From Candidatus Liptonbacteria bacterium (GTDB lineage: Bacteria > Patescibacteriota > Minisyncoccia > UBA6257 > 2-01-FULL-56-20), in contig JAHFLL010000001.1 of the NCBI GenBank assembly GCA_023244895.1, positions 83,630 to 147,629 on the forward strand: a stretch of DNA of 64,000 nt, in the 5' to 3' direction. Of the stretch, positions 6,016 to 55,101 are shown one piece after another. Below the pieces are notes generated by a model. It searched no databases and was not told where the DNA came from. It saw only the letters and a program-made list of their open reading frames with translations. How positions within the stretch are numbered: position 1 is the stretch's first letter; every line of letters starts with the position of its first letter. The position numbers and the translations under genes were made by a program.

Positions 6016-6471
6016 ATGACAGGCATTCCCAAAAGAGTAGGAGCTGGTTGTGGAGTGGTATTGTTGCGAGACGGCAAAGTGCTTCTGGGCCACCGGCATG
6101 AGGATCCGGAAAAAGCTCAGAGCGCGCTCCACGGCGAAGGAACTTGGTCTATTCCCGGAGGAAAGTTCGATTTTGGAGATACTTTAGGAGGTGGGGCCGT
6201 GAGGGAAGTTGCAGAAGAAACCGGTATAGAGATTAGCACTAAAGATCTGAAGGTGGTCAGCATTTCCAGCGAGCGGGTGCCGGATGCGCACTTTATTACC
6301 CTAGGATTTGTATGCGAGAATTTTAAGGGTGAGCCGAAAATAATGGAACCGGAGGAAATAACGGAGTGGCGCTGGTTCGATATTCATGATTTGCCTGAGC
6401 CGATGTTTTTTCCGGCAAAAAAAGTAATCAATAATTATCTCTCTGGCAAGATGTATAATTTAGACGAATAA
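6016..6471 (+). CDS. NUDIX hydrolase
   Basis: Nudix box GGKFDFGDTLGGGAVREVAEETGIE. Confidence 0.8.
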   Translation: MTGIPKRVGAGCGVVLLRDGKVLLGHRHEDPEKAQSALHGEGTWSIPGGKFDFGDTLGGGAVREVAEETGIEISTKDLKVVSISSERVPDAHFITLGFVCENFKGEPKIMEPEEITEWRWFDIHDLPEPMFFPAKKVINNYLSGKMYNLDE

Positions 6472-6472
6472 T

Positions 6473-7915
6473 ATGAAATACCAACCCACAATCGGATTAG
6501 AAATCCACTGCATCTTGCGAACACAGACCAAGATGTTTTGCGACTGCCCCAACGAGCCGGAGGAAAAGGAGCCCAACCGCAACACCTGCCCAGTTTGTCT
6601 GGGCCATCCCGGTACCTTGCCTACTATAAATCGCAAAGCGGTAGAGTCCGTTATCCGGGTGGGTCTGGCGCTTCAGGGTAAGATAAATCCGATTTGTAAG
6701 TTTGACCGTAAGAATTATTTTTATCCCGATTTGCCGAAGGGTTATCAAATTTCCCAATACGATCAGCCGCTAGTTCTGGGCGGCGAGCTGAATGGTATCC
6801 GCTTGCGCAGAATACATTTAGAAGAAGATGCGGCCAGGCTGCTGCATGAGATCTCCGGCCAAACCAAAAAGGGCGAGGCGAGTTTTGTGGATTTTAACCG
6901 CGCGAGCGTGCCCTTGATGGAGCTTGTGACTGAACCGGATTTAAGGAGCGCGGAAGAGACGGTAGAATTCGCGCGTGAGCTCCAAAGGATTTTGCGATAT
7001 TTGAAAGTATCGGACGCGGACATGGAGAAGGGGCATTTGCGCATTGAGGCAAATGTTAGTTTGAATATGGGTCCTAAGGTTGAGCTTAAAAATATTAACT
7101 CCTTTAAGGCGGTCGGTTCCGCGATTGCGTATGAACTGAAGAGGCAGGAGGAAGTTCTGGAGGGTGGAGGAACGGTCGCGCATGAGACACGCGGTTGGGA
7201 CGAAGTGAACCAGAAGAGCGTAAGTCAGCGTAGCAAGGAAGAAGCACAAGACTACCGTTATTTCCCGGAGCCGGATTTACCGCCATTTGAGACGGAGATT
7301 TTCAGCCCGGAAGAACTTCGTGGAGCCTTGCCGGAGTTGCCAGCCATGAAGCGTACCCGTTTCGCAAAAGAGTTCGGTTTGAGTCCCGACCAGGTCGCGC
7401 TCTTGGTGGACGACTTGGAACTATCGGAATATTTTGAAGAATGTTTAAGCGAGCTTGCCACGCGGGATGAATCAGCCTCGTCTACGGTTGAAAAGAGCAG
7501 TACCGTTTTACTCTTTAATTATTTAACTAGCGACCTGGCTGGCCTCTTGGCGGAAGGGGGCATAACTATCCGCAAATCCAAAGTCAAACCGGAACACCTG
7601 GCTCACTTAGTGGATTTAATCGTGGATGGAAAAATAATGAGCCGCCAAGCTAAAGATATTTTGAAGAAAGTTTTTGAAACCGGCACTGACCCGGAAGACG
7701 TTATGAAAGACGAGGGACTGGAGACCGTTTCGGATAACTCCGAGCTGGAAAAAGCGATTAAAGAAGTTATATATGAAAACCCGAAAGCGGTGGAAGATTT
7801 GCGCGCGGGCAAGGAGGCAAGCATGCAGTTCTTGATAGGAAAGTGTATGGGTAAGCTTCGCGGGCGGGGCAATCCGGCGACCATAAAAGAAGTTATAAGC
7901 AAAATTATTAAATAA
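6473..7915 (+). CDS. gatB: Asp/Glu-tRNA amidotransferase subunit B
   Basis: N-terminal GLEIHCIL...KMFCDCPN and a GatB/YqeY C-terminal domain. Confidence 0.9.
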   Translation: MKYQPTIGLEIHCILRTQTKMFCDCPNEPEEKEPNRNTCPVCLGHPGTLPTINRKAVESVIRVGLALQGKINPICKFDRKNYFYPDLPKGYQISQYDQPLVLGGELNGIRLRRIHLEEDAARLLHEISGQTKKGEASFVDFNRASVPLMELVTEPDLRSAEETVEFARELQRILRYLKVSDADMEKGHLRIEANVSLNMGPKVELKNINSFKAVGSAIAYELKRQEEVLEGGGTVAHETRGWDEVNQKSVSQRSKEEAQDYRYFPEPDLPPFETEIFSPEELRGALPELPAMKRTRFAKEFGLSPDQVALLVDDLELSEYFEECLSELATRDESASSTVEKSSTVLLFNYLTSDLAGLLAEGGITIRKSKVKPEHLAHLVDLIVDGKIMSRQAKDILKKVFETGTDPEDVMKDEGLETVSDNSELEKAIKEVIYENPKAVEDLRAGKEASMQFLIGKCMGKLRGRGNPATIKEVISKIIK

Positions 7916-9159
7916 TGAGCCCAGAAACTCCACCCCTCCCAGACGATCCGCCCAAGGACGCCTCTATCCCCAGGCGAACCTCTAGGGAAAATCCGAAACA
8001 AGAAGAAATCGGGTTGGAACATCTAGCGGTGGGTCCAGGTCAAGAAGATTCTGCCAGGCAGTTGGAAGTTATTTCCGGTTTTCGTTTTCGGGATGAGCGA
8101 GACAGGCAACAATTCACGTCTTTTATGGAGTCGCTGGCTCAGGCCCTAGAGACGTATTTATCGCACAACAATGCGGAGCCGTTGGCCGGGATAGACGACA
8201 CTATTTTGCGCGCAGTTTTGCTGGCAGAACCAAACGAACCGGCTCAAAGGCAGAAAATTTCGATTGAAGAAGCATTCGTAAGAATCCAAAAAAATATTAC
8301 CGAATATCTAATAAGTCATCCCCGTCAGATTCAAATCAGTTCTGGAGTTATCTCAGACCAATTAATTCTGCGGATTAAGGGCATGGAATCTATGGTCAAT
8401 TTTTTACATTTGCGCTCCGCCGAGCCTCTACCCGAAGATTGTCGCCGTACTTTTTACACCCAAACCAGGCTGGATGCCAGATTCAGCGTTGACGTAATAG
8501 AAGTGATTGAGCAAAACCAAGGTGGTCAATTAGAGATTCCGGAACTGAATCTTATTCAGGTCAAATCATCCGAACCCACAGATAGGGGCGTGAGCGATAT
8601 CCAGAAGGACCATGACATAGTTTGGCGAGAACTTTGGGGAGATGTGGAAAACGCTAATCAGGCAGTCGCGGAGGCATTCAGGTTAAGTCCAGACCAACTG
8701 GGCAAAAGGGTGGAGGGGCTACTTTGGATCTGCGCCGAGCTTCAGGCCGGGGGCAGTCCCAAAAATTTCCTTGACTCATTGACCGCTGAAATAATAAATT
8801 CGGCCGAACAGTATGGTGTAAACCCAGACTATCTAAGGCAGGCTAGCCCAGCCTTGCGCGCCAAAAGAATCACTCCCATATTGAGGATGTTTTTGAAATC
8901 CTTGGGGGAGAGATTTGATAAAGCATTTGTAGTATTAGATCAGATGTCCAAGAAACCAGAGGGCGTTCCCCCGCAGCAACCGTTTTTTGTGCGCAATCCG
9001 GCAGTAGCAAGAATTAAGGATGTGAATTCTTTGGTTGTTGTTGGAGAGCGGAGCGGTTCGTATCACATAGCGGCGAAGGAAGTCATTACTTCTGGCCAGT
9101 CCGGTAAGGCGTTAGTTTTGCGGTCGCGTCGGATTGACCCGGGAAATAAAAAGAGGTAA
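7915..9159 (+). CDS. hypothetical soluble protein (414 aa), translationally coupled to gatB
   Basis: start overlaps the gatB stop (TAATG); backbone-like GC; no TM segment and no motif I can assign. Confidence 0.5.
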   Translation: MSPETPPLPDDPPKDASIPRRTSRENPKQEEIGLEHLAVGPGQEDSARQLEVISGFRFRDERDRQQFTSFMESLAQALETYLSHNNAEPLAGIDDTILRAVLLAEPNEPAQRQKISIEEAFVRIQKNITEYLISHPRQIQISSGVISDQLILRIKGMESMVNFLHLRSAEPLPEDCRRTFYTQTRLDARFSVDVIEVIEQNQGGQLEIPELNLIQVKSSEPTDRGVSDIQKDHDIVWRELWGDVENANQAVAEAFRLSPDQLGKRVEGLLWICAELQAGGSPKNFLDSLTAEIINSAEQYGVNPDYLRQASPALRAKRITPILRMFLKSLGERFDKAFVVLDQMSKKPEGVPPQQPFFVRNPAVARIKDVNSLVVVGERSGSYHIAAKEVITSGQSGKALVLRSRRIDPGNKKR

Positions 9160-9171
9160 AAAATAGAAAGC

Positions 9172-9453
9172 ATGAGCAAGGAGCATGCACCCATGGGGAA
9201 CAACCCGATCGACGTCTTGCTGCGTGAGCACGGCCTCGAACCGTTGCCTGGCGCTGGCAGAGAGGGGCTGTACGTGGCTCCGTTTGACGAGCACGCGTGG
9301 GAAGTCGCCACGGCGACATTCAAGAACGCCATCGGTAATGCGTCGGATCAGGCGGCCATCGCCGAGCTGATGGAACAGGCGATTCGGCTGTACGTGGAGC
9401 TCGTCGGACAGAACACGCGAGCGCCCGCCGAGGAGCCAAGACGATGCGCGTAG
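9172..9453 (+). CDS. hypothetical high-GC protein (93 aa)
   Basis: first ORF of a high-GC island; followed by a strong hairpin terminator; start codon uncertain. Confidence 0.35.
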   Translation: MSKEHAPMGNNPIDVLLREHGLEPLPGAGREGLYVAPFDEHAWEVATATFKNAIGNASDQAAIAELMEQAIRLYVELVGQNTRAPAEEPRRCA

Positions 9454-9461
9454 GCGCGTAA

Positions 9462-9503
9462 GTGGCCGCACCCTCCCGGGATGCGGCCACGATATTTAAT
9501 AAT
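9462..9503 (+). terminator. intrinsic terminator GTGGCCGCA(11-nt loop)TGCGGCCAC plus T-rich tail
   Basis: perfect 9-bp GC stem followed by GATATTTAATAAT. Confidence 0.55.
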
Positions 9504-9525
9504 CAATTAGGTTGGTATAGATTTT

Positions 9526-9566
9526 ATGCAAAAAGTTACCCCCGGCGCACAGCGTGGCGCCAGGGG
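9526..9566 (-). terminator. intrinsic terminator for the PhoH-like gene (minus-strand CCCCTGGCGCC...GGCGCCGGGGG then TTTTTG)
   Basis: GC hairpin followed on the minus strand by TAACTTTTTGCAT. Confidence 0.6.
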
Positions 9567-9601
9567 TAGGGGACTTATGGACTCTCTCGTAGCGAGGACG
9601 G

Positions 9602-11062
9602 CTAGAGCAGTTTCGCCGCCAGCTCCGCGATCTTGGAGCGAACGACATCGTGCATCGCTAGGTGAGCGAAACAGGGCTGGCCCTTGAATCGTTCCACGAC
9701 CTGCACTAGCCCGTTTGAGAGCGAGTTGATCTCGCTACGGTCAATCTGGTCGGGGTCGCCCGTGAGGATCACGCGCGAGCCCTCGCCCGCCCGCGTGAGC
9801 ACGAGCTTCATGTCCTCTTGAGTGAGGTTCTGCCCGTCGTCCACAATGATGACGGCTTCGTGGATGGAGCGACCGCGCAGATAGTTAATCGGCGCGATAT
9901 CAAGGGCGTGCGTTTGGAGCAGACTCTCGACAGTCGGATGTGTCGATACCGCTTCTCCTCTGGTCGGTTGATGTTCGCCGACCGAGTTGGTGAAGCGTGT
10001 CGGACCATGCAGTCGGCGCATGATGAAGTCGAGGTTGTCGATGATGGGCCTGGCCCAAGGGGCCATCTTGTCTCCCAGATCTCCCGGGAGAAAGCCCAGT
10101 TCACGGCCCGCCTCGGCGTTGAGGCGGTAGACTTCGATACGCGAAACCTTGTGGCTCCGGAGCATCTTGTAGGCCGACAGGAGCGCAATGAGCGTCTTCC
10201 CCGTGCCGGCGATGCCGCTCAGGCTGGTGATTAGGGTATGATCGTCCATGATCAGGTCGTGCGCACAGAACTGTTCTGCGTTACACGGTCCGAAGCGTTC
10301 TTCCAGCTTGGTGTTGACGCGACGCAAGTAGCCTGGGGTTTCGTGACTCTTGTAGATTCCCCACGCACTCTTGCCCGTGCCGGCGACACAGATCTCACAG
10401 CACTGGTTGGCCATGATCTTACTCACATCTGTGTAGTCGGCCAGGGCACTCACCGGGAGCCGTTGCTCGTGGTGCAGAGTGTTCAGCAACGCTGCCTCGC
10501 CCTCTGGCACCTCAATGCGCAGGCGTCCCGAATAGAATTTCTCGGGAGCCTCCACGGCCCGGTCGCTCCGATAGTCTTCGGCCACGACGCCACGCGCGCG
10601 AGCCTTCATCCGCATCGCGGCATCGCGGGTGACGAGGATGACCCGTTCGTCCGGATGCGCGACCTGGTAGTTGTCAGCCAACATGATAATCGCATCATCG
10701 GCGTAGTCTCGGTTGAATCCGGGCCACGCGCGAGACAGGTCCAGCCTGCCCGCGTCGAATCGCAGCAGTCCTCCGTTCAGAGGGATTCCGTGCTGTAGTT
10801 CGTCGAGAGAGGCCCGCGTCTGAATGTCGTCCAAGAACCTGACCACGTTGCGGGCAGTGTACCCGACACCGTTTGCGGCAGCACGCCGCCGATCAAGTTC
10901 TTGGAGTACGGGGAACGGTATGACAACGACGTTCCCGTTGACCAGGGATTGCACGATTTCGGGCACGGCCACCAGCACGCTGGTGTCCGTAACGTAGGTC
11001 TTCTTCCCTACGTTTCCCGCTTCGCCGCTTAGCATGGATTGCTCCTTCGGGTTTGCCAACAC
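9602..11062 (-). CDS. PIN domain / PhoH-like ATPase fusion (YlaK-like)
   Basis: N-terminal PIN-like region (YVTDTSVLV...VVIPFPVLQELD) and C-terminal PhoH P-loop (LSGIAGTGKTLIAL); strong SD GAAGGAGCAATCC-ATG; GC3-rich codons unlike the backbone. Confidence 0.8.
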   Translation of the reverse strand: MLANPKEQSMLSGEAGNVGKKTYVTDTSVLVAVPEIVQSLVNGNVVVIPFPVLQELDRRRAAANGVGYTARNVVRFLDDIQTRASLDELQHGIPLNGGLLRFDAGRLDLSRAWPGFNRDYADDAIIMLADNYQVAHPDERVILVTRDAAMRMKARARGVVAEDYRSDRAVEAPEKFYSGRLRIEVPEGEAALLNTLHHEQRLPVSALADYTDVSKIMANQCCEICVAGTGKSAWGIYKSHETPGYLRRVNTKLEERFGPCNAEQFCAHDLIMDDHTLITSLSGIAGTGKTLIALLSAYKMLRSHKVSRIEVYRLNAEAGRELGFLPGDLGDKMAPWARPIIDNLDFIMRRLHGPTRFTNSVGEHQPTRGEAVSTHPTVESLLQTHALDIAPINYLRGRSIHEAVIIVDDGQNLTQEDMKLVLTRAGEGSRVILTGDPDQIDRSEINSLSNGLVQVVERFKGQPCFAHLAMHDVVRSKIAELAAKLL

Positions 11063-11142
11063 TTAAGTTGGGAGGTCCGAGTGCTCGCCTAATACTCCTT
11101 TCCGAGGCTGTCATTTGGTTGGAATGTAAAGGCCTCTGCCCC

Positions 11143-11178
11143 GAATTATACCCTTATGTAAGTTCAGAAAACAGCTGC
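11143..11178 (-). promoter_or_regulatory. candidate sigma70 promoter for the PIN-PhoH gene (perfect TATAAT -10)
   Basis: minus-strand ...TTTTCTGAACTTACATAAGGGTATAATTCGGGG about 80 nt upstream of the SD. Confidence 0.4.
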
Positions 11179-11211
11179 CTGTGGATAAGATTTATTGAGG
11201 TTTTATGCGGT

Positions 11212-12189
11212 CTAAAACAATTTTTTCACCTCTTGTAAAGCCCTATTTTTATCCTCTATCCAAACAATATTTTTATCTTTTTTCCACCAAGTCATTTGGC
11301 GTTTGGCGTAGCGCCAAATTTCGGTTTCCAATTTTTGCAACATTTCTTCTTTGGTTATCAGTCCGCGCAGATAGCGAGAGAGGTAGCGATATTCCAAGCC
11401 AAGCTCTTCCATTCTCCGCCAGCTTAATCCATCTTGGTGTAATTTTTTTACCTCTACCAACATGCCTTGGCGCATCCTTTTAATAAGTCGCGCGCGAATT
11501 CTCTCGCGTAGCTTCTCGGGTTTAATCCCAATGCCGAGTTTTAAAATTTTGTTTTGCGAAATTTTATCCTGAGCTTGTCGAAGGATTATGTCTGGGACGG
11601 GCGCGCCGGTTTTGAGGACTATCTCTAAGGCGCGGATGAGGCGACGCGGATTTTTTTGGTCAATATTTTTGGCGCGCGCCGGGTCCAGCTTCTGAAGTTT
11701 TTCGAAAAGTTCCGTGACAGATAATTTTTCCAACTTGGCGCGTAGTTTGGGATCGGGCGGAACGTTTGGCAGGGAGGTGTTATTTATAAGTGCATCAATA
11801 TAGAGTCCGGTACCTCCGCAGATAATCGGCAATTTATTTTTCGCCCAGATTGTTTTGAGCGCTTTGCGTCCGAGCTTCTGGTAGTCGGCTACAGAAAATT
11901 GTTTTTTAGGAGAGGCTACATCAAGCAGATAGTGGGGAATGCCTTTATAGGAGTAGGTAGTAGGTAGAGAGTAGTAGGCAGAGCGATCACGGGGAACTTT
12001 GCCGGTGCCGATATCAAGACCTCGATAAACCTGACGGGAGTCGGCAGAAATAATCTCTGCACCAGATATGCCGTACTTTTTTTGGAATGGTTTACTCTGA
12101 GCGAGCTTGGCGAGTCGAAGGGCCAAATCCGACTTGCCGGAGGCGGTCGGGCCTAAAATAACCAGTATTTTCCTGCTTAAATCACTCAT
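11212..12189 (-). CDS. miaA: tRNA dimethylallyltransferase (true start MSDLSRK at 12189; the longer track ORF is readthrough)
   Basis: P-loop ILGPTASGKS and IISADSRQVYRGLDIGTGK; low-GC backbone codon usage. Confidence 0.85.
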   Translation of the reverse strand: MSDLSRKILVILGPTASGKSDLALRLAKLAQSKPFQKKYGISGAEIISADSRQVYRGLDIGTGKVPRDRSAYYSLPTTYSYKGIPHYLLDVASPKKQFSVADYQKLGRKALKTIWAKNKLPIICGGTGLYIDALINNTSLPNVPPDPKLRAKLEKLSVTELFEKLQKLDPARAKNIDQKNPRRLIRALEIVLKTGAPVPDIILRQAQDKISQNKILKLGIGIKPEKLRERIRARLIKRMRQGMLVEVKKLHQDGLSWRRMEELGLEYRYLSRYLRGLITKEEMLQKLETEIWRYAKRQMTWWKKDKNIVWIEDKNRALQEVKKLF

Positions 12190-12218
12190 TTGACTAATTA
12201 TACAAAATGTGATAAAAT
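12190..12218 (+). promoter_or_regulatory. near-consensus sigma70 promoter TTGACT-17-TGaTAAAAT (extended -10)
   Basis: seen directly; the -35 abuts the miaA start codon on the opposite strand. Confidence 0.5.
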
Positions 12219-12288
12219 ACGCAATAGCGTCGGTGAGCTGGGGCATAGGGCTCCGGCAATAGTCCGAGGCGGTATATCGGAGTGCGTC

Positions 12289-12684
12289 ATGACTGATGCT
12301 ATCGTGTTTGTGATCACGGCGTTCATGGTCGGCGGAGAGGTCTTCATGGCGGCATGGGGGATTTTCTCCTGGACATGCGTTGTGGCGTGGCTCGCTGTGA
12401 TGCTCTATCTCACCTGGGACATCTGGGGCGCCCGGGTCGTAGAGCTCCAGCGGGATCTCGTGGCCGAGTTGGAGGAAGGCACGCCGCCCGACTTCAGCTC
12501 GCAACGAGTACTCCCGCCAAGTAGGTGGGACATCGTCCATTTCGCTGGCGTGGACGAGCAGGGGCAGGCGAAGTTCGACTACCCCCTCCTTTCCGCGTTT
12601 GCCGCCTGGCTCCGCCACCACATTGTGATTGGCGGTGGTCGCTGGCGGTACGGCGACACGTTCCCGCCGGACGGCAGCCGGTAG
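12289..12684 (+). CDS. small membrane protein (about 131 aa, 2 predicted TM segments), high GC
   Basis: GGAG 8 nt upstream of the ATG; hydrophobic N-terminus (VFVITAFMVGG...WLAVMLYLTW); GC3-rich. Confidence 0.4.
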   Translation: MTDAIVFVITAFMVGGEVFMAAWGIFSWTCVVAWLAVMLYLTWDIWGARVVELQRDLVAELEEGTPPDFSSQRVLPPSRWDIVHFAGVDEQGQAKFDYPLLSAFAAWLRHHIVIGGGRWRYGDTFPPDGSR

Positions 12685-12746
12685 CCCCACTGAGACGGGG
12701 CAATAGTGACTGGGGTCCAACGTGGACCCCTTTCGCATTTTTATAT

Positions 12747-12775
12747 TTGACTAAAGTGGAAAGCGGGCATAGTTT
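12747..12775 (+). promoter_or_regulatory. candidate promoter TTGACTAAAGTGG...(-10 weak, TAGTTT)
   Basis: shares the TTGACTAA -35 box with the promoters at 12190 and 13853, and AAAGTGG with the one at 34703. Confidence 0.3.
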
Positions 12776-12798
12776 TTAAATCAGGAAAGGAGACGGCG

Positions 12799-12906
12799 AT
12801 GTTTCAAGCAGGCAACTCCTCGGACCCATGGGTCGTATTCGCGTTTGTGGTAATGGCGATTTTGGCCTGGGTTGTTCGCCGAATTGATCGGCGGAAAGGA
12901 GGATAG
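12799..12906 (+). CDS. 35-aa single-TM peptide (MFQAGNSSDPWVVFAFVVMAILAWVVRRIDRRKGG)
   Basis: AGGAAAGGAGAC SD 5 nt upstream; codons checked by hand. Confidence 0.4.
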   Translation: MFQAGNSSDPWVVFAFVVMAILAWVVRRIDRRKGG

Positions 12907-12907
12907 A

Positions 12908-13099
12908 ATGCAGCCGCCCACAGAGTTCAGGTTGGAAAACGTTCTGGCGGCTACGGGCCTCTTCGTTGCCTGGCTGGTCGGCAATCTCATAGCCGACTGT
13001 CGGGCGAGACGGAGAAGGACGAATGTGCCGAAACGTGGAAGCGGGCACGCTCCGCACGAACACTGCGAACACGAATGCGAGGAAAAGCGTGAAAGCTAG
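12908..13099 (+). CDS. 63-aa membrane peptide with His/Cys/Glu-rich tail (HAPHEHCEHECEE)
   Basis: AGGAGG SD; start lies 1 nt after the previous stop; a TM helix followed by a possible metal-binding tail. Confidence 0.4.
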   Translation: MQPPTEFRLENVLAATGLFVAWLVGNLIADCRARRRRTNVPKRGSGHAPHEHCEHECEEKRES

Positions 13100-13102
13100 G
13101 GG

Positions 13103-13145
13103 GCGAGTCGGAGAGCCGACTCGCCCTTACACATTTAATAATTTG
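13103..13145 (+). terminator. intrinsic terminator GGCGAGTCGG agag CCGACTCGCC plus T-rich tail
   Basis: perfect 10-bp stem 4 nt after the stop. Confidence 0.6.
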
Positions 13146-13170
13146 ACAAAGATTCGGAATAGTATTTGGA
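13144..13170 (+). promoter_or_regulatory. candidate promoter with TTGACA -35 inside the motif ATTTGACAAAGA (also present at 16636)
   Basis: -10 is ambiguous (TAGTAT or TATTTG with a short spacer). Confidence 0.3.
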
Positions 13171-13246
13171 TAGGGATAGCTTACTGCTCCGACGCTTTCG
13201 TGGGCCTTGGGGCAAATCTAGTGGGCGGAAGGGAGGGATCTCCGTG

Positions 13247-13378
13247 ATGTTGGCAGTCGCACTCTCGAGCGTCCCGATGTGGGCATGGCCAGTCATCGCC
13301 ATCGTGGCCGTCGTGGCTGCCGCTGTGGTTGCGCGGTTTTTCAGCGGCAGGAACTCGTCCACGAACCACGTCGCGTGA
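13247..13378 (+). CDS. 43-aa hydrophobic peptide (MLAVALSSVPMWAWPVIAIVAVVAAAVVARFF...)
   Basis: GGGAGGG SD; GTG-ATG start; one TM segment. Confidence 0.4.
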   Translation: MLAVALSSVPMWAWPVIAIVAVVAAAVVARFFSGRNSSTNHVA

Positions 13379-13387
13379 CACAGCAAG

Positions 13388-13440
13388 GGGGGCCGGAGGA
13401 AGCGTGCGTATGCACGCTCGCCAATGGCCCCCCGATCAAT
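13388..13440 (+). terminator. nested GC hairpins (GGGGGGCC...GGCCCCCC enclosing GCGTGC gtat GCACGC)
   Basis: lies downstream of the 43-aa ORF; followed by an AT-rich stretch. Confidence 0.4.
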
Positions 13441-13527
13441 TTCAATAATCGGATTGACGGATAGTCTTTTTTATACTTTCATATAGCGAGCGCACAATCA
13501 TCGCCACCTCGCCTCAAGGAGGTCGGA

Positions 13528-13815
13528 ATGGGTTTGATCTTGGTATATGCGATCGCACTGTATGCGATCATCGCCTTCGTGCACGGAGCACAAGGTGGAA
13601 ATCGGGAAGATGTGAACGAAGAATCCGCACGTCCGCCGCTCTGGTGGATAGCGATCCACACTCTCGGAAGCTGGCTGGCTCTCCAGCCAAAGCTCTTCCC
13701 GGAGCGTTGGTGCGAATTCGTGTGTCGGTTCAAGATGTTGCGCGGGTCTCTGTGTCGGCGAATGACGGAGGTCGTCCGTCGTGGCTGGCACCTGATTGGT
13801 GCGAACATAGAATGA
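13528..13815 (+). CDS. 95-aa membrane protein with Cys-rich C-terminus (WCEFVCRF...SLCRR)
   Basis: AAGGAGG SD 6 nt upstream; two hydrophobic segments. Confidence 0.45.
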   Translation: MGLILVYAIALYAIIAFVHGAQGGNREDVNEESARPPLWWIAIHTLGSWLALQPKLFPERWCEFVCRFKMLRGSLCRRMTEVVRRGWHLIGANIE

Positions 13816-13852
13816 AGGGGCTTCCGGCACGCGTCGGCGGTCCCTTTCTGTT

Positions 13853-13881
13853 TTGACTAATCAGCCATTTTGTTTTTATAT
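13853..13881 (+). promoter_or_regulatory. sigma70-like promoter TTGACT-17-TTATAT
   Basis: TTTTGACTAA -35 context shared with 12190 and 12747. Confidence 0.45.
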
Positions 13882-13896
13882 ATAGTCAGCACGTAT

Positions 13897-13917
13897 CTTC
13901 CGGTGTGCTACGCACCG
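13897..13917 (+). promoter_or_regulatory. 5'-UTR hairpin TCCGGTG tgctacg CACCGGA
   Basis: perfect 7-bp inverted repeat between the promoter and the SD of the 178-aa ORF. Confidence 0.35.
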
Positions 13918-13939
13918 GAGTTGCCGTTTTGGAGGACAC

Positions 13940-14476
13940 ATGACCGGCGAAGTTCTAGTAGCAGTTCTGCTGGGCGTAATCATGGGGGTCGCAATTCTGG
14001 GCTCAATGGACCGTGCCACCTGGCGGCGAGTCTGGGACGAGATCTTCGCCGACGCCTGGTGCGTCCAGGCCACGAAGAACACCTACGAGTCCGTTGTGGG
14101 TGCGATTCTGTGGCTCGGGGTCATGGTGGCGGGTCTCGCTATTCAAGCGGCGGGGTCGGTGCGGGCATGGTGGCGAGAGAAAGTATTTGTGCCACCGCGC
14201 GTTGCCATCAAAACGTTCGCGGACGCGACGGGTCGCGAAGGCGAGAACACTATGGTGTTCATCTCCGAGGTGGGCATCCTGGTCTGGCGGCTGTTGCTTT
14301 GGCTCGCGATAGCAGCTGTCGCGAGCGTTTTCCGCCAGCTCCTCGCTGAGCGGGCAGAGACAAAACGGGTTTTCGCCACATTTGCCGACTCCATAGAGGC
14401 GGACGACCACTTCTGTGCGACGACCCTAACCAATCGGCAGGATGCCGCTTGCGAAGCCGTGAGGTCAGTCAAGTAG
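13940..14476 (+). CDS. 178-aa polytopic membrane protein (about 4 predicted TM segments)
   Basis: GGAGG SD; alternating hydrophobic helices; high GC. Confidence 0.5.
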   Translation: MTGEVLVAVLLGVIMGVAILGSMDRATWRRVWDEIFADAWCVQATKNTYESVVGAILWLGVMVAGLAIQAAGSVRAWWREKVFVPPRVAIKTFADATGREGENTMVFISEVGILVWRLLLWLAIAAVASVFRQLLAERAETKRVFATFADSIEADDHFCATTLTNRQDAACEAVRSVK

Positions 14477-14484
14477 ACCAGTCT

Positions 14485-14520
14485 GGGGCTCCGCGTATGT
14501 CGGAGCCCCTTACGCTTTTC
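14485..14520 (+). terminator. intrinsic terminator GGGGCTCCG cgtatgt CGGAGCCCC plus T-rich tail
   Basis: perfect 9-bp stem ending the high-GC island. Confidence 0.6.
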
Positions 14521-14627
14521 ACTCATCTTTATAGAATCAATAGGGGTATCTCACGAGATGGGACTAAACAGTAACTCCTATTATTTTTAGAACTAAAACA
14601 TAGCGTCATGGTGGGTCCCGCCCGGCC

Positions 14628-16433
14628 TCACAAAGACTTCTCCTTGTATTCTTTCTCTATTTCCTCTGCCAATTTTTCTATTTTCATTTCTCCTACCTGT
14701 CCCTTCTTGTAATGCCTGATGCTTACCGTGTTCGTACCTTCTTCTTTTTCGCCAACAACTAAAACGTAGGGTATCTTTTCCATATCCGCGGTGCGGATTC
14801 TCTTGCCCAGAGTCTCGTTCGCGTCGCGCAATTCCACCCGGATATTTTTTTCGCGCATGGCCTCCGCCACTTTTTCGGCATACGCCGCGAACTTTTCTCC
14901 GACTGGCAGAATTGCGACTTGCACCGGCGCGAGCCAGAGAGGGAATGCGCCCGCGTAGCGCTCTATCAGGAATGCCATGGTGCGCTCAAAGCAGCCGATA
15001 GAGGAGCGGTGAATCACGATAGGCTGTTGTTCTTTGCCCTGCTCGTCGGTATAAACCAATTCAAAACGTTTTGGCATTACGAAGTCATACTGCACTGTAA
15101 AGGCGGTCTCTTCCTGGCCGCTGACCTTCTTCATCTGCACGTCAATCTTAGGACCATAGAACGCCGCCTCACCTTCCGCTTCAAAGAAGGGCGCTTTCAT
15201 TTCTTTGAGCACGCTACGCAAAACACCCTCCGCTTTTTCCCAGGCCTTGTCGTCCTTGTAGTATTTCTTGGAATCCTTGCGGTCGCCGAGCGATAGACGG
15301 TAGCGATAATCAACTCCCTTCTCCAAACCAAATACTTTATTAGCGTAATCTATCAGATCTAAAACCCGTTTTATTTCATCCTTAGCCTTTTCTGCGGGAA
15401 CGACAATATGCGCGTCCGCCAAGCAGAACATTCTTACCCTCATTAAGCCGGTCAGCTCACCGCTTTTTTCGTAGCGGAATTGGCTGGCTATCTCCGCGAT
15501 GCGCATAGGTAATTCGCGGTAACTACGCGGCTTGCTCTTATAAAGCATAAAGTGGTGTGGACAGGTCATGGGACGCAGTATTAATTGGTCGTTGTCCACC
15601 TGCATGACCGGATACATTGTATTTTTATAATAGGGGTAGTGTCCGGACTTCTGATAGAGTTCCACTTTCGCGAGCGGGGGAGTGATAACGTGCTGATAAC
15701 CCCACTTGGTTTCGGTTTCGTACACGAATTTTTCCAGCTCTTTTCTGATGACGGTGCCCTTGGGGGTGAGGAGCGGCAAGCCCTTGCCGACTATGTCGGA
15801 AAAAACAAACAGATCTAAATCCGCGCCCAGTTTGCGATGGTCTCGCTTCCTGGCTTCTTCCAGTCGCGCTACGCATTCCTCCAGCTCTTTCTTGCTGTTA
15901 AATGCCAAGCCGTAGATACGGGTCAGCATTTTTTTCTTTTCGTCGCCTCGCCAGTAAGCGCCGGCAATCTTCTCCAGCTTAAAACCGTGCGGGTCTATCT
16001 CGGCCGGGGGCAGGTCGTGTCCGCCTTTGCACAAATCTATAAATCCTCCGCAAGTGAAAAAAGTTAGAGTTTTTTTCTCGCGCGCGAATTCTTCCGCGAG
16101 CTCAATCTTATATTTATTCCAACCAAACTCTTTTTTGACCTCGCGCAGGGTTACGATTTTTTTAGTCCACTTGGTCCAACGGGGAAGCAGTTCCCGCATT
16201 TTAGCCTCAATCTTGGGTAGGTCCGCATCGGAAATAGTTTTTGACATCTCAAAGTCCTGGTAGAAGCCGTTTTCTACGGCTGGTCCGATCGCGTTCATAG
16301 AGCCGGGGTAGAGCTCGCGCACGGCGGCGGCCAAAAGGTGCGCCAAGGAATGGCGCACGCCTTCCAGTTGCAGTTCGCTGGAACTCTCCCTTGCCGGCTT
16401 GCTTGCTGATTTCTTTACGGATTGTTTTTTCAT
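14628..16433 (-). CDS. thrS: threonyl-tRNA synthetase
   Basis: class II core with an anticodon-binding domain; N-terminal editing/TGS region reduced; TGA stop. Confidence 0.9.
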   Translation of the reverse strand: MKKQSVKKSASKPARESSSELQLEGVRHSLAHLLAAAVRELYPGSMNAIGPAVENGFYQDFEMSKTISDADLPKIEAKMRELLPRWTKWTKKIVTLREVKKEFGWNKYKIELAEEFAREKKTLTFFTCGGFIDLCKGGHDLPPAEIDPHGFKLEKIAGAYWRGDEKKKMLTRIYGLAFNSKKELEECVARLEEARKRDHRKLGADLDLFVFSDIVGKGLPLLTPKGTVIRKELEKFVYETETKWGYQHVITPPLAKVELYQKSGHYPYYKNTMYPVMQVDNDQLILRPMTCPHHFMLYKSKPRSYRELPMRIAEIASQFRYEKSGELTGLMRVRMFCLADAHIVVPAEKAKDEIKRVLDLIDYANKVFGLEKGVDYRYRLSLGDRKDSKKYYKDDKAWEKAEGVLRSVLKEMKAPFFEAEGEAAFYGPKIDVQMKKVSGQEETAFTVQYDFVMPKRFELVYTDEQGKEQQPIVIHRSSIGCFERTMAFLIERYAGAFPLWLAPVQVAILPVGEKFAAYAEKVAEAMREKNIRVELRDANETLGKRIRTADMEKIPYVLVVGEKEEGTNTVSIRHYKKGQVGEMKIEKLAEEIEKEYKEKSL

Positions 16434-28780: not shown

Positions 28781-29125
28781 CTAGGACATGATGGCGTGAA
28801 GCAGGGCGAGGCAGGGCCCGCCCACGCTTCCGAGGAAGAAGCCGATCGCGATGACTATCGCGTAGACCTCCAGCGCGGAAGTGCGTGGCTTGCGCCGCTT
28901 GAGCTTCCCGGCCAGATTGGCGAGGAGGCAGAGCAATGGCATCACCAAGATCCAGGTCAATGCGCGCCCCGTGGCCTGGTCTTGCGGACTGGCGCTTGGC
29001 CAGCCTGAGGACATGAGCCACCAGCCGCCCCAGATCGCCGCCAGCAGGGCGAGGATCGTCGTGAGGACGACGGCCCACTCCCATTTGCCGCAATCGATTC
29101 CGTTCGCCGCCGTGACGCTTGTCAT
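28781..29125 (-). CDS. 114-aa high-GC membrane protein (Trp-rich, about 3 predicted TM segments)
   Basis: GGAGGAG SD 4 nt upstream of the ATG; upstream TTGCCA-16-TATTTT promoter. Confidence 0.5.
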   Translation of the reverse strand: MTSVTAANGIDCGKWEWAVVLTTILALLAAIWGGWWLMSSGWPSASPQDQATGRALTWILVMPLLCLLANLAGKLKRRKPRTSALEVYAIVIAIGFFLGSVGGPCLALLHAIMS

Positions 29126-54285: not shown

Positions 54286-55101
54286 ATGCATCCAGGAGAA
54301 CACGGCGTGGAGAACAAAGACAGCAAACGCAGGATGACCCAGGAAGAGGCAGAACTTTTCGCGCGGGACGCGCGATACACGACTCCGGAATCGTTCCGTT
54401 ACAGCTGTTGCGTGGATGGACGGGAAGAAGGCGCAGATGCTTCGCGGGCAGTGCCTGGCGCAGACGCGGGCTACTTCATGTCTGCTCTTGCCGCTCTCCG
54501 GGAATCCGGAGTAGAGGTCACCCCTGAGGTGCGTCGCGCGGTTTTCGGTGCAGTGATTGACTCGGTCGGCGGCCCAAAGAACATCCGTTTCCACACCGAC
54601 CTTCACGCCTTGGAAAAGGCGAAGGAAAAGGGAGTTGTTGCGGGAGTGGCTGCTGGCTGTGGTCATCTCAATTTGGCTCGGCAGAACCCCGGAGTTTACG
54701 GCGTCACCGCGGAAGATATGTCCGCGATCGACGAGGAGCTCCTAAGGCTGCTCGGCGAGGACGCTGATCAGAAGACCCTCCCCGGCAATCACGGCGAGGA
54801 AGCAGTGATGGTGGTGGACGATGTTTCTGTCGGGTTACGCCACCAGGCCGCCGGCAGTCAGGCCTTCGTGTACCACAAGGGTTCGAGCGATGCCTTTTTA
54901 GACCAGCTGGCGGGAGCGGTCTTGGCGAAGCTACCGAACCATCAGCCCGGTCTCACCGAAGAAGCTCTGCGCGTTAAACTGGGAGCATCTTTCGATAGGC
55001 AGCTTACCGCCACGGTGAATAGCCTGGCGCCCGGCCTGCCTCAGTACCGGGTGAGCGGGGAAGAGGTTTCCTACTTGGGCGACGTTCCCAAGAAAGAGTA
55101 G
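54286..55101 (+). CDS. high-GC hypothetical soluble protein (271 aa; start may be the GTG at about 54304 after an AGGAGA SD)
   Basis: about 60% GC; Cys motifs CCVDGRE and AAGCGH; no confident family. Confidence 0.45.
   Translation: MHPGEHGVENKDSKRRMTQEEAELFARDARYTTPESFRYSCCVDGREEGADASRAVPGADAGYFMSALAALRESGVEVTPEVRRAVFGAVIDSVGGPKNIRFHTDLHALEKAKEKGVVAGVAAGCGHLNLARQNPGVYGVTAEDMSAIDEELLRLLGEDADQKTLPGNHGEEAVMVVDDVSVGLRHQAAGSQAFVYHKGSSDAFLDQLAGAVLAKLPNHQPGLTEEALRVKLGASFDRQLTATVNSLAPGLPQYRVSGEEVSYLGDVPKKE

Follow-up and report, generated by a model that had tools for sequence, protein, structure and literature searches.

The question raised by a 64,000-nucleotide stretch of Candidatus Liptonbacteria DNA (contig JAHFLL010000001.1; 'the window' below is this whole stretch) is how a bacterium of the candidate phyla radiation (CPR, or Patescibacteria) came to carry, between miaA and gatB, a gene for a PIN-PhoH protein of the PhoH2/YlaK type, and what its product might do there. 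The guanine-plus-cytosine (GC) content of positions 9101-11100, the stretch containing this gene, is 0.599 versus 0.494 for the window as a whole, with sharp edges and a step of 11 points. The surroundings comprise gyrB, secE, nusG, L11, tmk, a NUDIX gene, gatB, miaA, thrS, serS and alr, together with two open reading frames (ORFs), orf414 and the GC-rich orf93, that share the gatB side of the locus. The explanation considered quite probable as a whole is that an ancestor of the CPR clade to which this genome belongs acquired the PIN-PhoH gene once, from an acidobacterium, that the gene has since been inherited vertically with decay in places, and that the product functions as an RNA helicase and RNase.

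The PIN-PhoH gene occupies 9602..11035 on the minus strand and encodes 477 amino acids (aa), with a GC content of 0.606 and a value at third codon positions (GC3) of 0.747, compared with 0.485 for miaA, 0.555 for gatB and approximately 0.45-0.60 for host genes overall. An earlier note on this DNA had described a high-GC segment with a PIN-PhoH gene whose codon usage is unlike that of miaA and gatB, and both descriptions hold. Its length of 486 aa does not, as this counts from a GTG upstream in the enclosing reading frame (9602-11062, minus strand), while a start at ATG 11035 agrees with the public gene call (P0001) and with the lengths of homologues. The exact protein is present on an NCBI contig of 840,672 bp. 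The strong Shine-Dalgarno sequence it reported before an ATG is present as GAAGGAG at 11042..11048 (minus strand), 6 nt 5′ of ATG 11035, and the same sequence is found in the related contig L004. Pfam matches cover both halves of the protein, PIN_4 (PF13638) N-terminally (E = 2.2e-23, residues 23-165, full profile 1-132) and PhoH (PF02562), a P-loop ATPase, C-terminally (E = 1.3e-49, residues 261-482); the PhoH domain also matches the solved PhoH structure 3B85 (E = 4.9e-29), PDB coverage of the family being of this isolated domain only. In an alignment of 158 sequences the PIN acidic residues D17 (DTS), E47 (QELD), D113 (ADD) and D137 (TRD) are invariant, and they are intact in the window copy, as the earlier note had expected, and in those of the relatives L003 and L044. 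The same three copies have intact Walker A (GIAGTGKT) and Walker B (IIVDDGQN, a variant of hhhhDD type found throughout the family) motifs, and likewise the other PhoH blocks. The Walker B core reads VDDGQN in the window protein and LDEAQN in 3B85. Its domains place the protein in the PIN-PhoH (COG1875/YlaK/PhoH2) architecture class; the likeness to COG1875 and to the YlaK type of Bacillus subtilis (in the PIN-like superfamily, the group PIN_4.COG1875) is one of domain family.

The source of the gene can be traced with some precision. Of 4003 PIN-PhoH homologues, the 120 that rank highest share 69-78% identity with it, and every labelled one of these is assigned to Acidobacteriota/Vicinamibacterales; the nearest (73-76% aa identity at full length) all come from Acidobacteriota of 65-70% GC, chiefly Vicinamibacterales. 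Scanning the species representatives of GTDB gave 37 loci, nearly all acidobacterial and again mostly of Vicinamibacterales, with a locus GC of 64-73% and genes (GC 0.62-0.70, GC3 0.76-0.98) in line with their own genomes. (L019, L032, L035 and L038 have titles, Bifidobacteriaceae, Bifidobacterium breve and Flavobacteriaceae, that clash with their GC of 67-71% and Vicinamibacterales-like PIN-PhoH, and are probably mislabelled or chimeric bins.) In neighbour-joining (NJ) trees the CPR copies lie inside the acidobacterial radiation, Acidobacteria being monophyletic without them in 0 of 200 bootstraps, and the window and L003 copies are sisters in all 200. Vicinamibacterales orthologues, for example P0003 / L007, have the same motif set and length as the window protein, but differ in that acidobacterial genes have a GC3 of 0.85-0.97, matched to their genomes, whereas the CPR copies are at 0.73-0.80, evolve faster and have a host-type promoter. 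When window positions 7900-14650 were compared by six-frame tblastn with the 37 donor-like loci (±6 kb, or less at contig ends), the PIN-PhoH gene alone matched, so the traceable transfer is of a single gene. Clustering of the neighbourhoods of the acidobacterial genes showed no conservation among them and no phoAT-like or other conserved partner gene. The PIN-PhoH gene is thus a compositional outlier that nests in the donor clade rather than in the host lineage and is absent from the miaA-gatB site of an outgroup (L052; ThrS 71% identical, where a PaaX-like gene separates miaA from gatB), and its horizontal acquisition from a Vicinamibacterales-like acidobacterium, and with it the foreign high-GC origin proposed earlier, is supported.

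How long ago the transfer occurred is indicated by related genomes. The best named matches of the window's ThrS are from Candidatus Liptonbacteria (79%) and Minisyncoccia (69%), followed by many other Patescibacteria, and in four other related lineages the site between miaA and gatB holds PIN-PhoH or its traces, the gene being intact in two. One of these two, from Rifle groundwater (L003/L004; GyrB 97% identical over the C-terminal 369 aa present on the contig, GatB 88-93% by local and global alignment), has the order miaA, PIN-PhoH, gatB, with a PIN-PhoH of 78% aa identity and a GC of 60% vs 47% in the flanks. The second (L044, NCBI GCA_964529845.1; ThrS 94%, GatB 92%) has the same order and a PIN-PhoH that is 68% identical, with a GC3 of 0.74. 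In the more distant L049 (orf414 51%) gatB, orf414 and orf93 are convergent with PIN-PhoH, an order like that of the window; of PIN-PhoH its 2.5-kb contig contains the C-terminal 233 aa only (72% identity, GC3 0.80). In L003, L044 and L049 the gene has a GC of 0.60-0.64 within contigs of 47-55%, and the GC3 of 0.73-0.80 seen in CPR copies is that of a gene partly ameliorated towards its host. The fourth lineage, a single population represented by L045, L050 and L053, has kept gatB-orf414-orf93 and, of PIN-PhoH, a relic only: at ~11630-11890 of L045 on the minus strand, and also in L050 and L053, positions 173-243 of the family hidden Markov model match with E = 1e-11. The relic corresponds to the inter-domain linker region, on the correct strand, and has in-frame stops and one frameshift. 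(A 94-aa plus-strand gene call that overlaps it in L045 is probably spurious, and a GC-rich 97-aa ORF of unknown origin flanks it.) Parsimony favours a single acquisition in the clade ancestor with differential loss afterwards, of orf414 and orf93 in L003 and L044 and of PIN-PhoH in L045. At sites at least 97% conserved elsewhere, derived substitutions are common to CPR copies, E374x to all three compared, E287K to the window and L044, and P157A/S160A to the window and L003.

The signals for expression of the gene are also pertinent, since those upstream have the character of the host. The 176 nt 5′ of PIN-PhoH constitute a promoter and 5′ untranslated region (5′UTR) following miaA, and contain, within a host-like AT-rich region, a TATAAT -10 box at 11145..11150 (minus strand) that is conserved across relatives, unchanged in two of them. 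On alignment of window positions 11036-11215 (minus strand) with L004 and L044, GTATAATTC and, upstream of it, TAAATCTTATCC are invariant. Of the promoter claimed in the earlier note, the TATAAT thus stands; a consensus promoter scan found no -35 box for it, so that a full promoter was not called, and the case for it is better argued from conservation in relatives than from the consensus scan. Over the same alignment the promoter and 5′UTR are more strongly conserved than the coding sequence. A segment of the 5′UTR of about 50 nt is identical in the window and L004, with a small CCAAC/GTTGG hairpin just 5′ of the Shine-Dalgarno sequence, and L044 is without this segment. The intrinsic terminator that had been proposed was recovered just past the stop codon, at 9527..9568 (minus strand), as a 12-pair G+C-rich stem (9568-9537) followed by ACTTTTTG. 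L003, L044 and L049 have a hairpin and A/T run at the same position, with different sequence. Rfam matched no RNA family within the GC-rich segment or close to it, but only two distant tRNAs.

Between CPR copies of PIN-PhoH dN/dS is 0.19-0.24, with 0.03 for gatB and 0.07-0.11 for tmk; the gene is under purifying selection that is relaxed relative to that on gatB or tmk. The course of events may then have been as follows. In a small clade within the Patescibacteria, whose nearest named relatives are Candidatus Liptonbacteria, an ancestor would have taken one PIN-PhoH gene from an acidobacterium of Vicinamibacterales type; insertion would have been between miaA and gatB, beside or before the clade-specific orf414-orf93 pair, and would have placed the gene under a host-type AT-rich promoter, with an intrinsic terminator of its own. 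Vertical descent since would have involved retention under relaxed purifying selection in the window, L003 and L044 and reduction to a relic in L045, with GC3 presumably having covered only part of the distance between about 0.9 and the host value of about 0.5.

Proteins in which PIN_4 is combined with PhoH have been described as the PhoH2 class, found in bacteria and phages (PMC5499597). PhoH2 of Mycobacterium tuberculosis and M. smegmatis unwinds RNA in an ATP-dependent manner and is an RNase with sequence specificity (PMC7390352). The window protein is like mycobacterial PhoH2 (NF053827, 'RNA 5′-3′ helicase PhoH2') in having PIN_4 N-terminally and PhoH C-terminally within about 430-480 aa, and in its four PIN acidic residues and Walker A and B motifs; it is unlike it in having no upstream phoAT-like gene and in being a xenolog in a CPR genome. 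By analogy with the family, the P-loop domain would load on RNA and unwind it 5′ to 3′ with ATP, and the PIN domain, given its four intact acidic residues, would cleave RNA, in which case PIN-PhoH may be an enzyme of post-transcriptional RNA turnover or regulation, as for mycobacterial PhoH2 (PMC7390352, PMC5499597). An ATP-driven RNA helicase/RNase of PhoH2/YlaK type is the likely function.

A number of observations weigh against parts of this account. With regard to function, the score against the NF053827 PhoH2 equivalog model is 225.5 bits, with the cut-off at 680; biochemical equivalence to mycobacterial PhoH2 is thus an extrapolation, the window protein is not a mycobacterial PhoH2 equivalog, and its expression and its ATPase, helicase and RNase activities are putative, by homology. 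The CPR copies have 8-16 substitutions at 206 sites that are at least 97% conserved elsewhere, the mean for other family members being 0.9, and changes in this number at near-invariant sites could mean altered function or the onset of decay. As to a single acquisition, all PIN-PhoH trees are distance-based and do not recover the CPR copies as one monophyletic group, those of the window, L003 and L044 clustering in 36-38 of 200 bootstraps; and L044 and L049 are each marginally nearer to acidobacterial sequences than to the window copy. Given this non-monophyly, a single acquisition rests mainly on shared position, shared junctions and a few shared substitutions.

It is these tree and distance results that lend themselves to the rival whose standing is best, namely several independent acquisitions, or allelic replacements, from different acidobacterial donors at a miaA-gatB hotspot. 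In the NJ tree L044, at 68% identity to the window copy, pairs with the acidobacterial L023, and the gene content of the locus is variable. However, the 5′ junction, consisting of the promoter block, -10 box and start region, is common to the window, L004 and L044; the position of the terminator is shared; all copies have a similarly intermediate GC3; the derived substitutions described above are held in common; and the pattern fits faster evolution on CPR branches from an ancestor near to a slowly evolving acidobacterial consensus, which is how we read the L044 and L049 distances. Repeated capture is accordingly regarded as improbable.

A different type of alternative gives orf93 a role, as the antitoxin neutralizing a toxic PIN nuclease in a type II toxin-antitoxin pair, and here mycobacteria offer a precedent, since in them phoH2 and phoAT, a short gene for an antitoxin, are transcribed together (PMC7390352, PMC4826407). 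The 93-aa convergent ORF of the earlier note is real and convergent, at 9193..9453 on the plus strand, but is probably of 86 aa, from ATG 9193, rather than of 93 aa from ATG 9172: AAGGAG at 9177-9182 precedes ATG 9193, and homologues and the public gene call begin there. Its GC of 0.635, with 0.68/0.45/0.78 at the three codon positions, is the pattern of a real high-GC gene, and dN/dS versus L045 is 0.31. In a search of 1.84 billion cluster representatives it had relatives in four clusters only, its own, that of L045/L050 (52-59% identity), that of L049 (41%) and a 175-aa protein; the family has in common the motif HG-EPLP...Y-APFDE-AWE-AT. The 175-aa protein is encoded at 8001-8528 of L046 (JGI 3300037047), a contig of 65% GC, the similarity to orf93 being in its C-terminal part, and has defence- or toxin-antitoxin-like neighbours, AbiEi_4, AEP-TOTE/DEAD helicase, NTP_transf_2 and PIN_10/DUF433. 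This sole relative from beyond the CPR clade hints that orf93 is likewise from a high-GC organism. An AlphaFold2 model of orf93 has three helices (pLDDT 77), and a Foldseek search of the PDB with it gave nothing at E ≤ 0.001. The proposal that the whole segment is foreign thus stands for PIN-PhoH, which is traced to Acidobacteria; the small ORF is untraced there, tblastn finding no counterpart beside the acidobacterial PIN-PhoH genes of the 37 loci, and is co-inherited with orf414, whose GC is that of the host.

Downstream of orf93, at 9462..9490 (plus strand), is a hairpin with a perfect 9-bp stem, GTGGCCGCA / TGCGGCCAC (z = -2.5), to which the predicted fold adds three inner pairs with one bulge. 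The stem of the terminator claimed for the small ORF is therefore present; in the window it is followed by GATATTTAAT, with no U-run, and on that account it was not among the terminators called by the scan in this genome. In L045 and L049 the hairpin is conserved with covarying sequence and a T-rich tail, and it is likely a terminator whose U-tract is weak here. The partner of orf93, orf414 (7915..9159, plus strand; GC 0.483), is a clade-restricted ORFan whose start overlaps the gatB stop in TAATG at 7913-7917, so that the coupling to gatB reported earlier for the 414-aa gene is a real arrangement. A database of 5.8 billion sequences contains two orf414 proteins, to which can be added the 422-aa homologue (51%) in L049, and a metagenome scan with the orf414 alignment found one contig, of the same population as L045. 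The AlphaFold2 model of orf414, made with its single database homologue, is unusable (pLDDT 39). Neither orf93 nor orf414 has a match in Pfam, NCBIfam, PADLOC or PHROGs.

For the pairing of orf93 with PIN-PhoH, then, it can be said that orf93 is small, helical, adjacent and comparably GC-rich, and that its one homologue beyond the clade lies beside AbiEi and PIN_10/DUF433 genes. Yet orf93 lies beyond the 3′ end of PIN-PhoH in convergent orientation rather than preceding it in an operon, and would be transcribed with gatB-orf414; L003 and L044 have an intact PIN-PhoH with all catalytic residues and are without orf93; L045 has kept orf93 despite decay of PIN-PhoH; and acidobacterial PIN-PhoH genes have neither an adjacent orf93 homologue nor a conserved small partner. 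The joint presence of orf414 and orf93 in three lineages and their joint absence in two imply inheritance as a pair, independently of PIN-PhoH, and this, together with the convergent orientation and the intact PIN-PhoH copies lacking orf93, argues against a PhoAT-like antitoxin role. A toxin-antitoxin pair is thus very unlikely, and with no short co-transcribed antitoxin gene upstream the locus is not a PhoAT-PhoH2 module. Instead, orf93 would encode a small helical protein in its own right, on one transcript with gatB-orf414, and would not be required to neutralize PIN-PhoH.

That the segment represents a mobile or defence island of recent origin (the earlier note spoke of accessory, stress or defence contexts for such proteins), or an assembly or binning chimera with acidobacterial DNA, deserves hardly any credence in spite of the sharp GC step, weak PADLOC matches to Nhi and AbiO and the inclusion in PHROGs of the full-length PIN-PhoH family (PHROG 2765, 9e-94), as the PADLOC matches span just 40-60 residues of the P-loop domain, PIN-PhoH shares no more than 76% identity with any acidobacterial sequence and is partly ameliorated, no direct or inverted repeats flank the segment, no integrase, transposase, tRNA or defence genes were found in the neighbourhood, a viral-contig scan gave no close relatives, and the same junctions recur in four other diverged lineages and identically in independent ENA, Logan and NCBI assemblies, from which it follows that the segment is not an assembly artefact. 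It is neither recent nor a mobile island.

Elsewhere in the window there are further variable or GC-rich features. In the tmk-gatB interval the NUDIX gene (6016-6471, plus strand), a further variable element of the locus, has 60-66% identity between relatives, with 78-99% for neighbouring genes, and is missing from L044. The miaA ORF (11212-12738, minus strand; 508 aa, also in public calls) is over-extended into GC-rich DNA: its IPPT domain begins at residue 236, with the P-loop after MSDLSRK, and relatives' MiaA proteins are of 317, 326 and 305 aa, the likely start being ATG 12189, for a product of about 325 aa. Between miaA and thrS, at 12190-14510 (plus strand), is a second GC-rich island (55-62% GC, GC3 about 0.64-0.73) with some five small plus-strand cassettes whose products, of about 131 aa (from 12290), 75/74, 43, 95 and 178 aa, are mostly hydrophobic and membrane-like. 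Each cassette has an AT-rich promoter-like site of the form TTGAC(T/A)-N17-TAnnnT, a Shine-Dalgarno sequence and a G+C hairpin. These small ORFs have no match in Pfam, NCBIfam, PADLOC or PHROGs; L044 has diverged homologues of the 75-, 95- and 178-aa proteins (62, 58 and 34%), and small ORFs of similar kind follow thrS in L045 and in the Candidatus Liptonbacteria contig L051. Two other compositional outliers, 54286-55101 (plus strand; about 60% GC, a 271-aa ORF with no Pfam match) and 28781-29125 (minus strand; about 58% GC, a 114-aa hydrophobic ORF with sub-threshold matches only), could likewise be genes of foreign origin or ones that evolve fast.

The genomes of CPR bacteria are minimal, and for most of these bacteria the host is not known. 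A bolder reading of the donor signal is a physical partnership, the clade being, now or formerly, episymbiotic on Vicinamibacterales and having taken PIN-PhoH from its host. This is unlikely, but if true, the other small GC-rich genes around miaA, namely orf93 and those of the five cassettes at 12.2-14.5 kb, might also derive from the host or serve in interaction with it. In a weaker variant of this bolder reading PIN-PhoH, situated among tRNA-handling genes (gatB, miaA, thrS and serS), would have tRNA as its target, jointly with the gatB-coupled pair orf414-orf93. Single-gene transfers from other phyla into groundwater Patescibacteria, mostly non-recent, have been described, and the donor phyla tabulated there exclude Acidobacteriota, with no mention of PhoH (PMC12455944); in comparison with those transfers, retention and loss are here traceable through five lineages. 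No new kind of system is involved, as both PIN-PhoH proteins and horizontal gene transfer into Patescibacteria are already documented. What the locus provides is a well-resolved cross-phylum gene gain, with donor order, insertion site, and retention and decay over five lineages, and thereby a data point on how streamlined symbionts gain, and then retain or lose, enzymes of RNA metabolism, on the slowness with which the GC of a foreign gene is ameliorated in such genomes, and on the organisms with which these cells may have been in contact.

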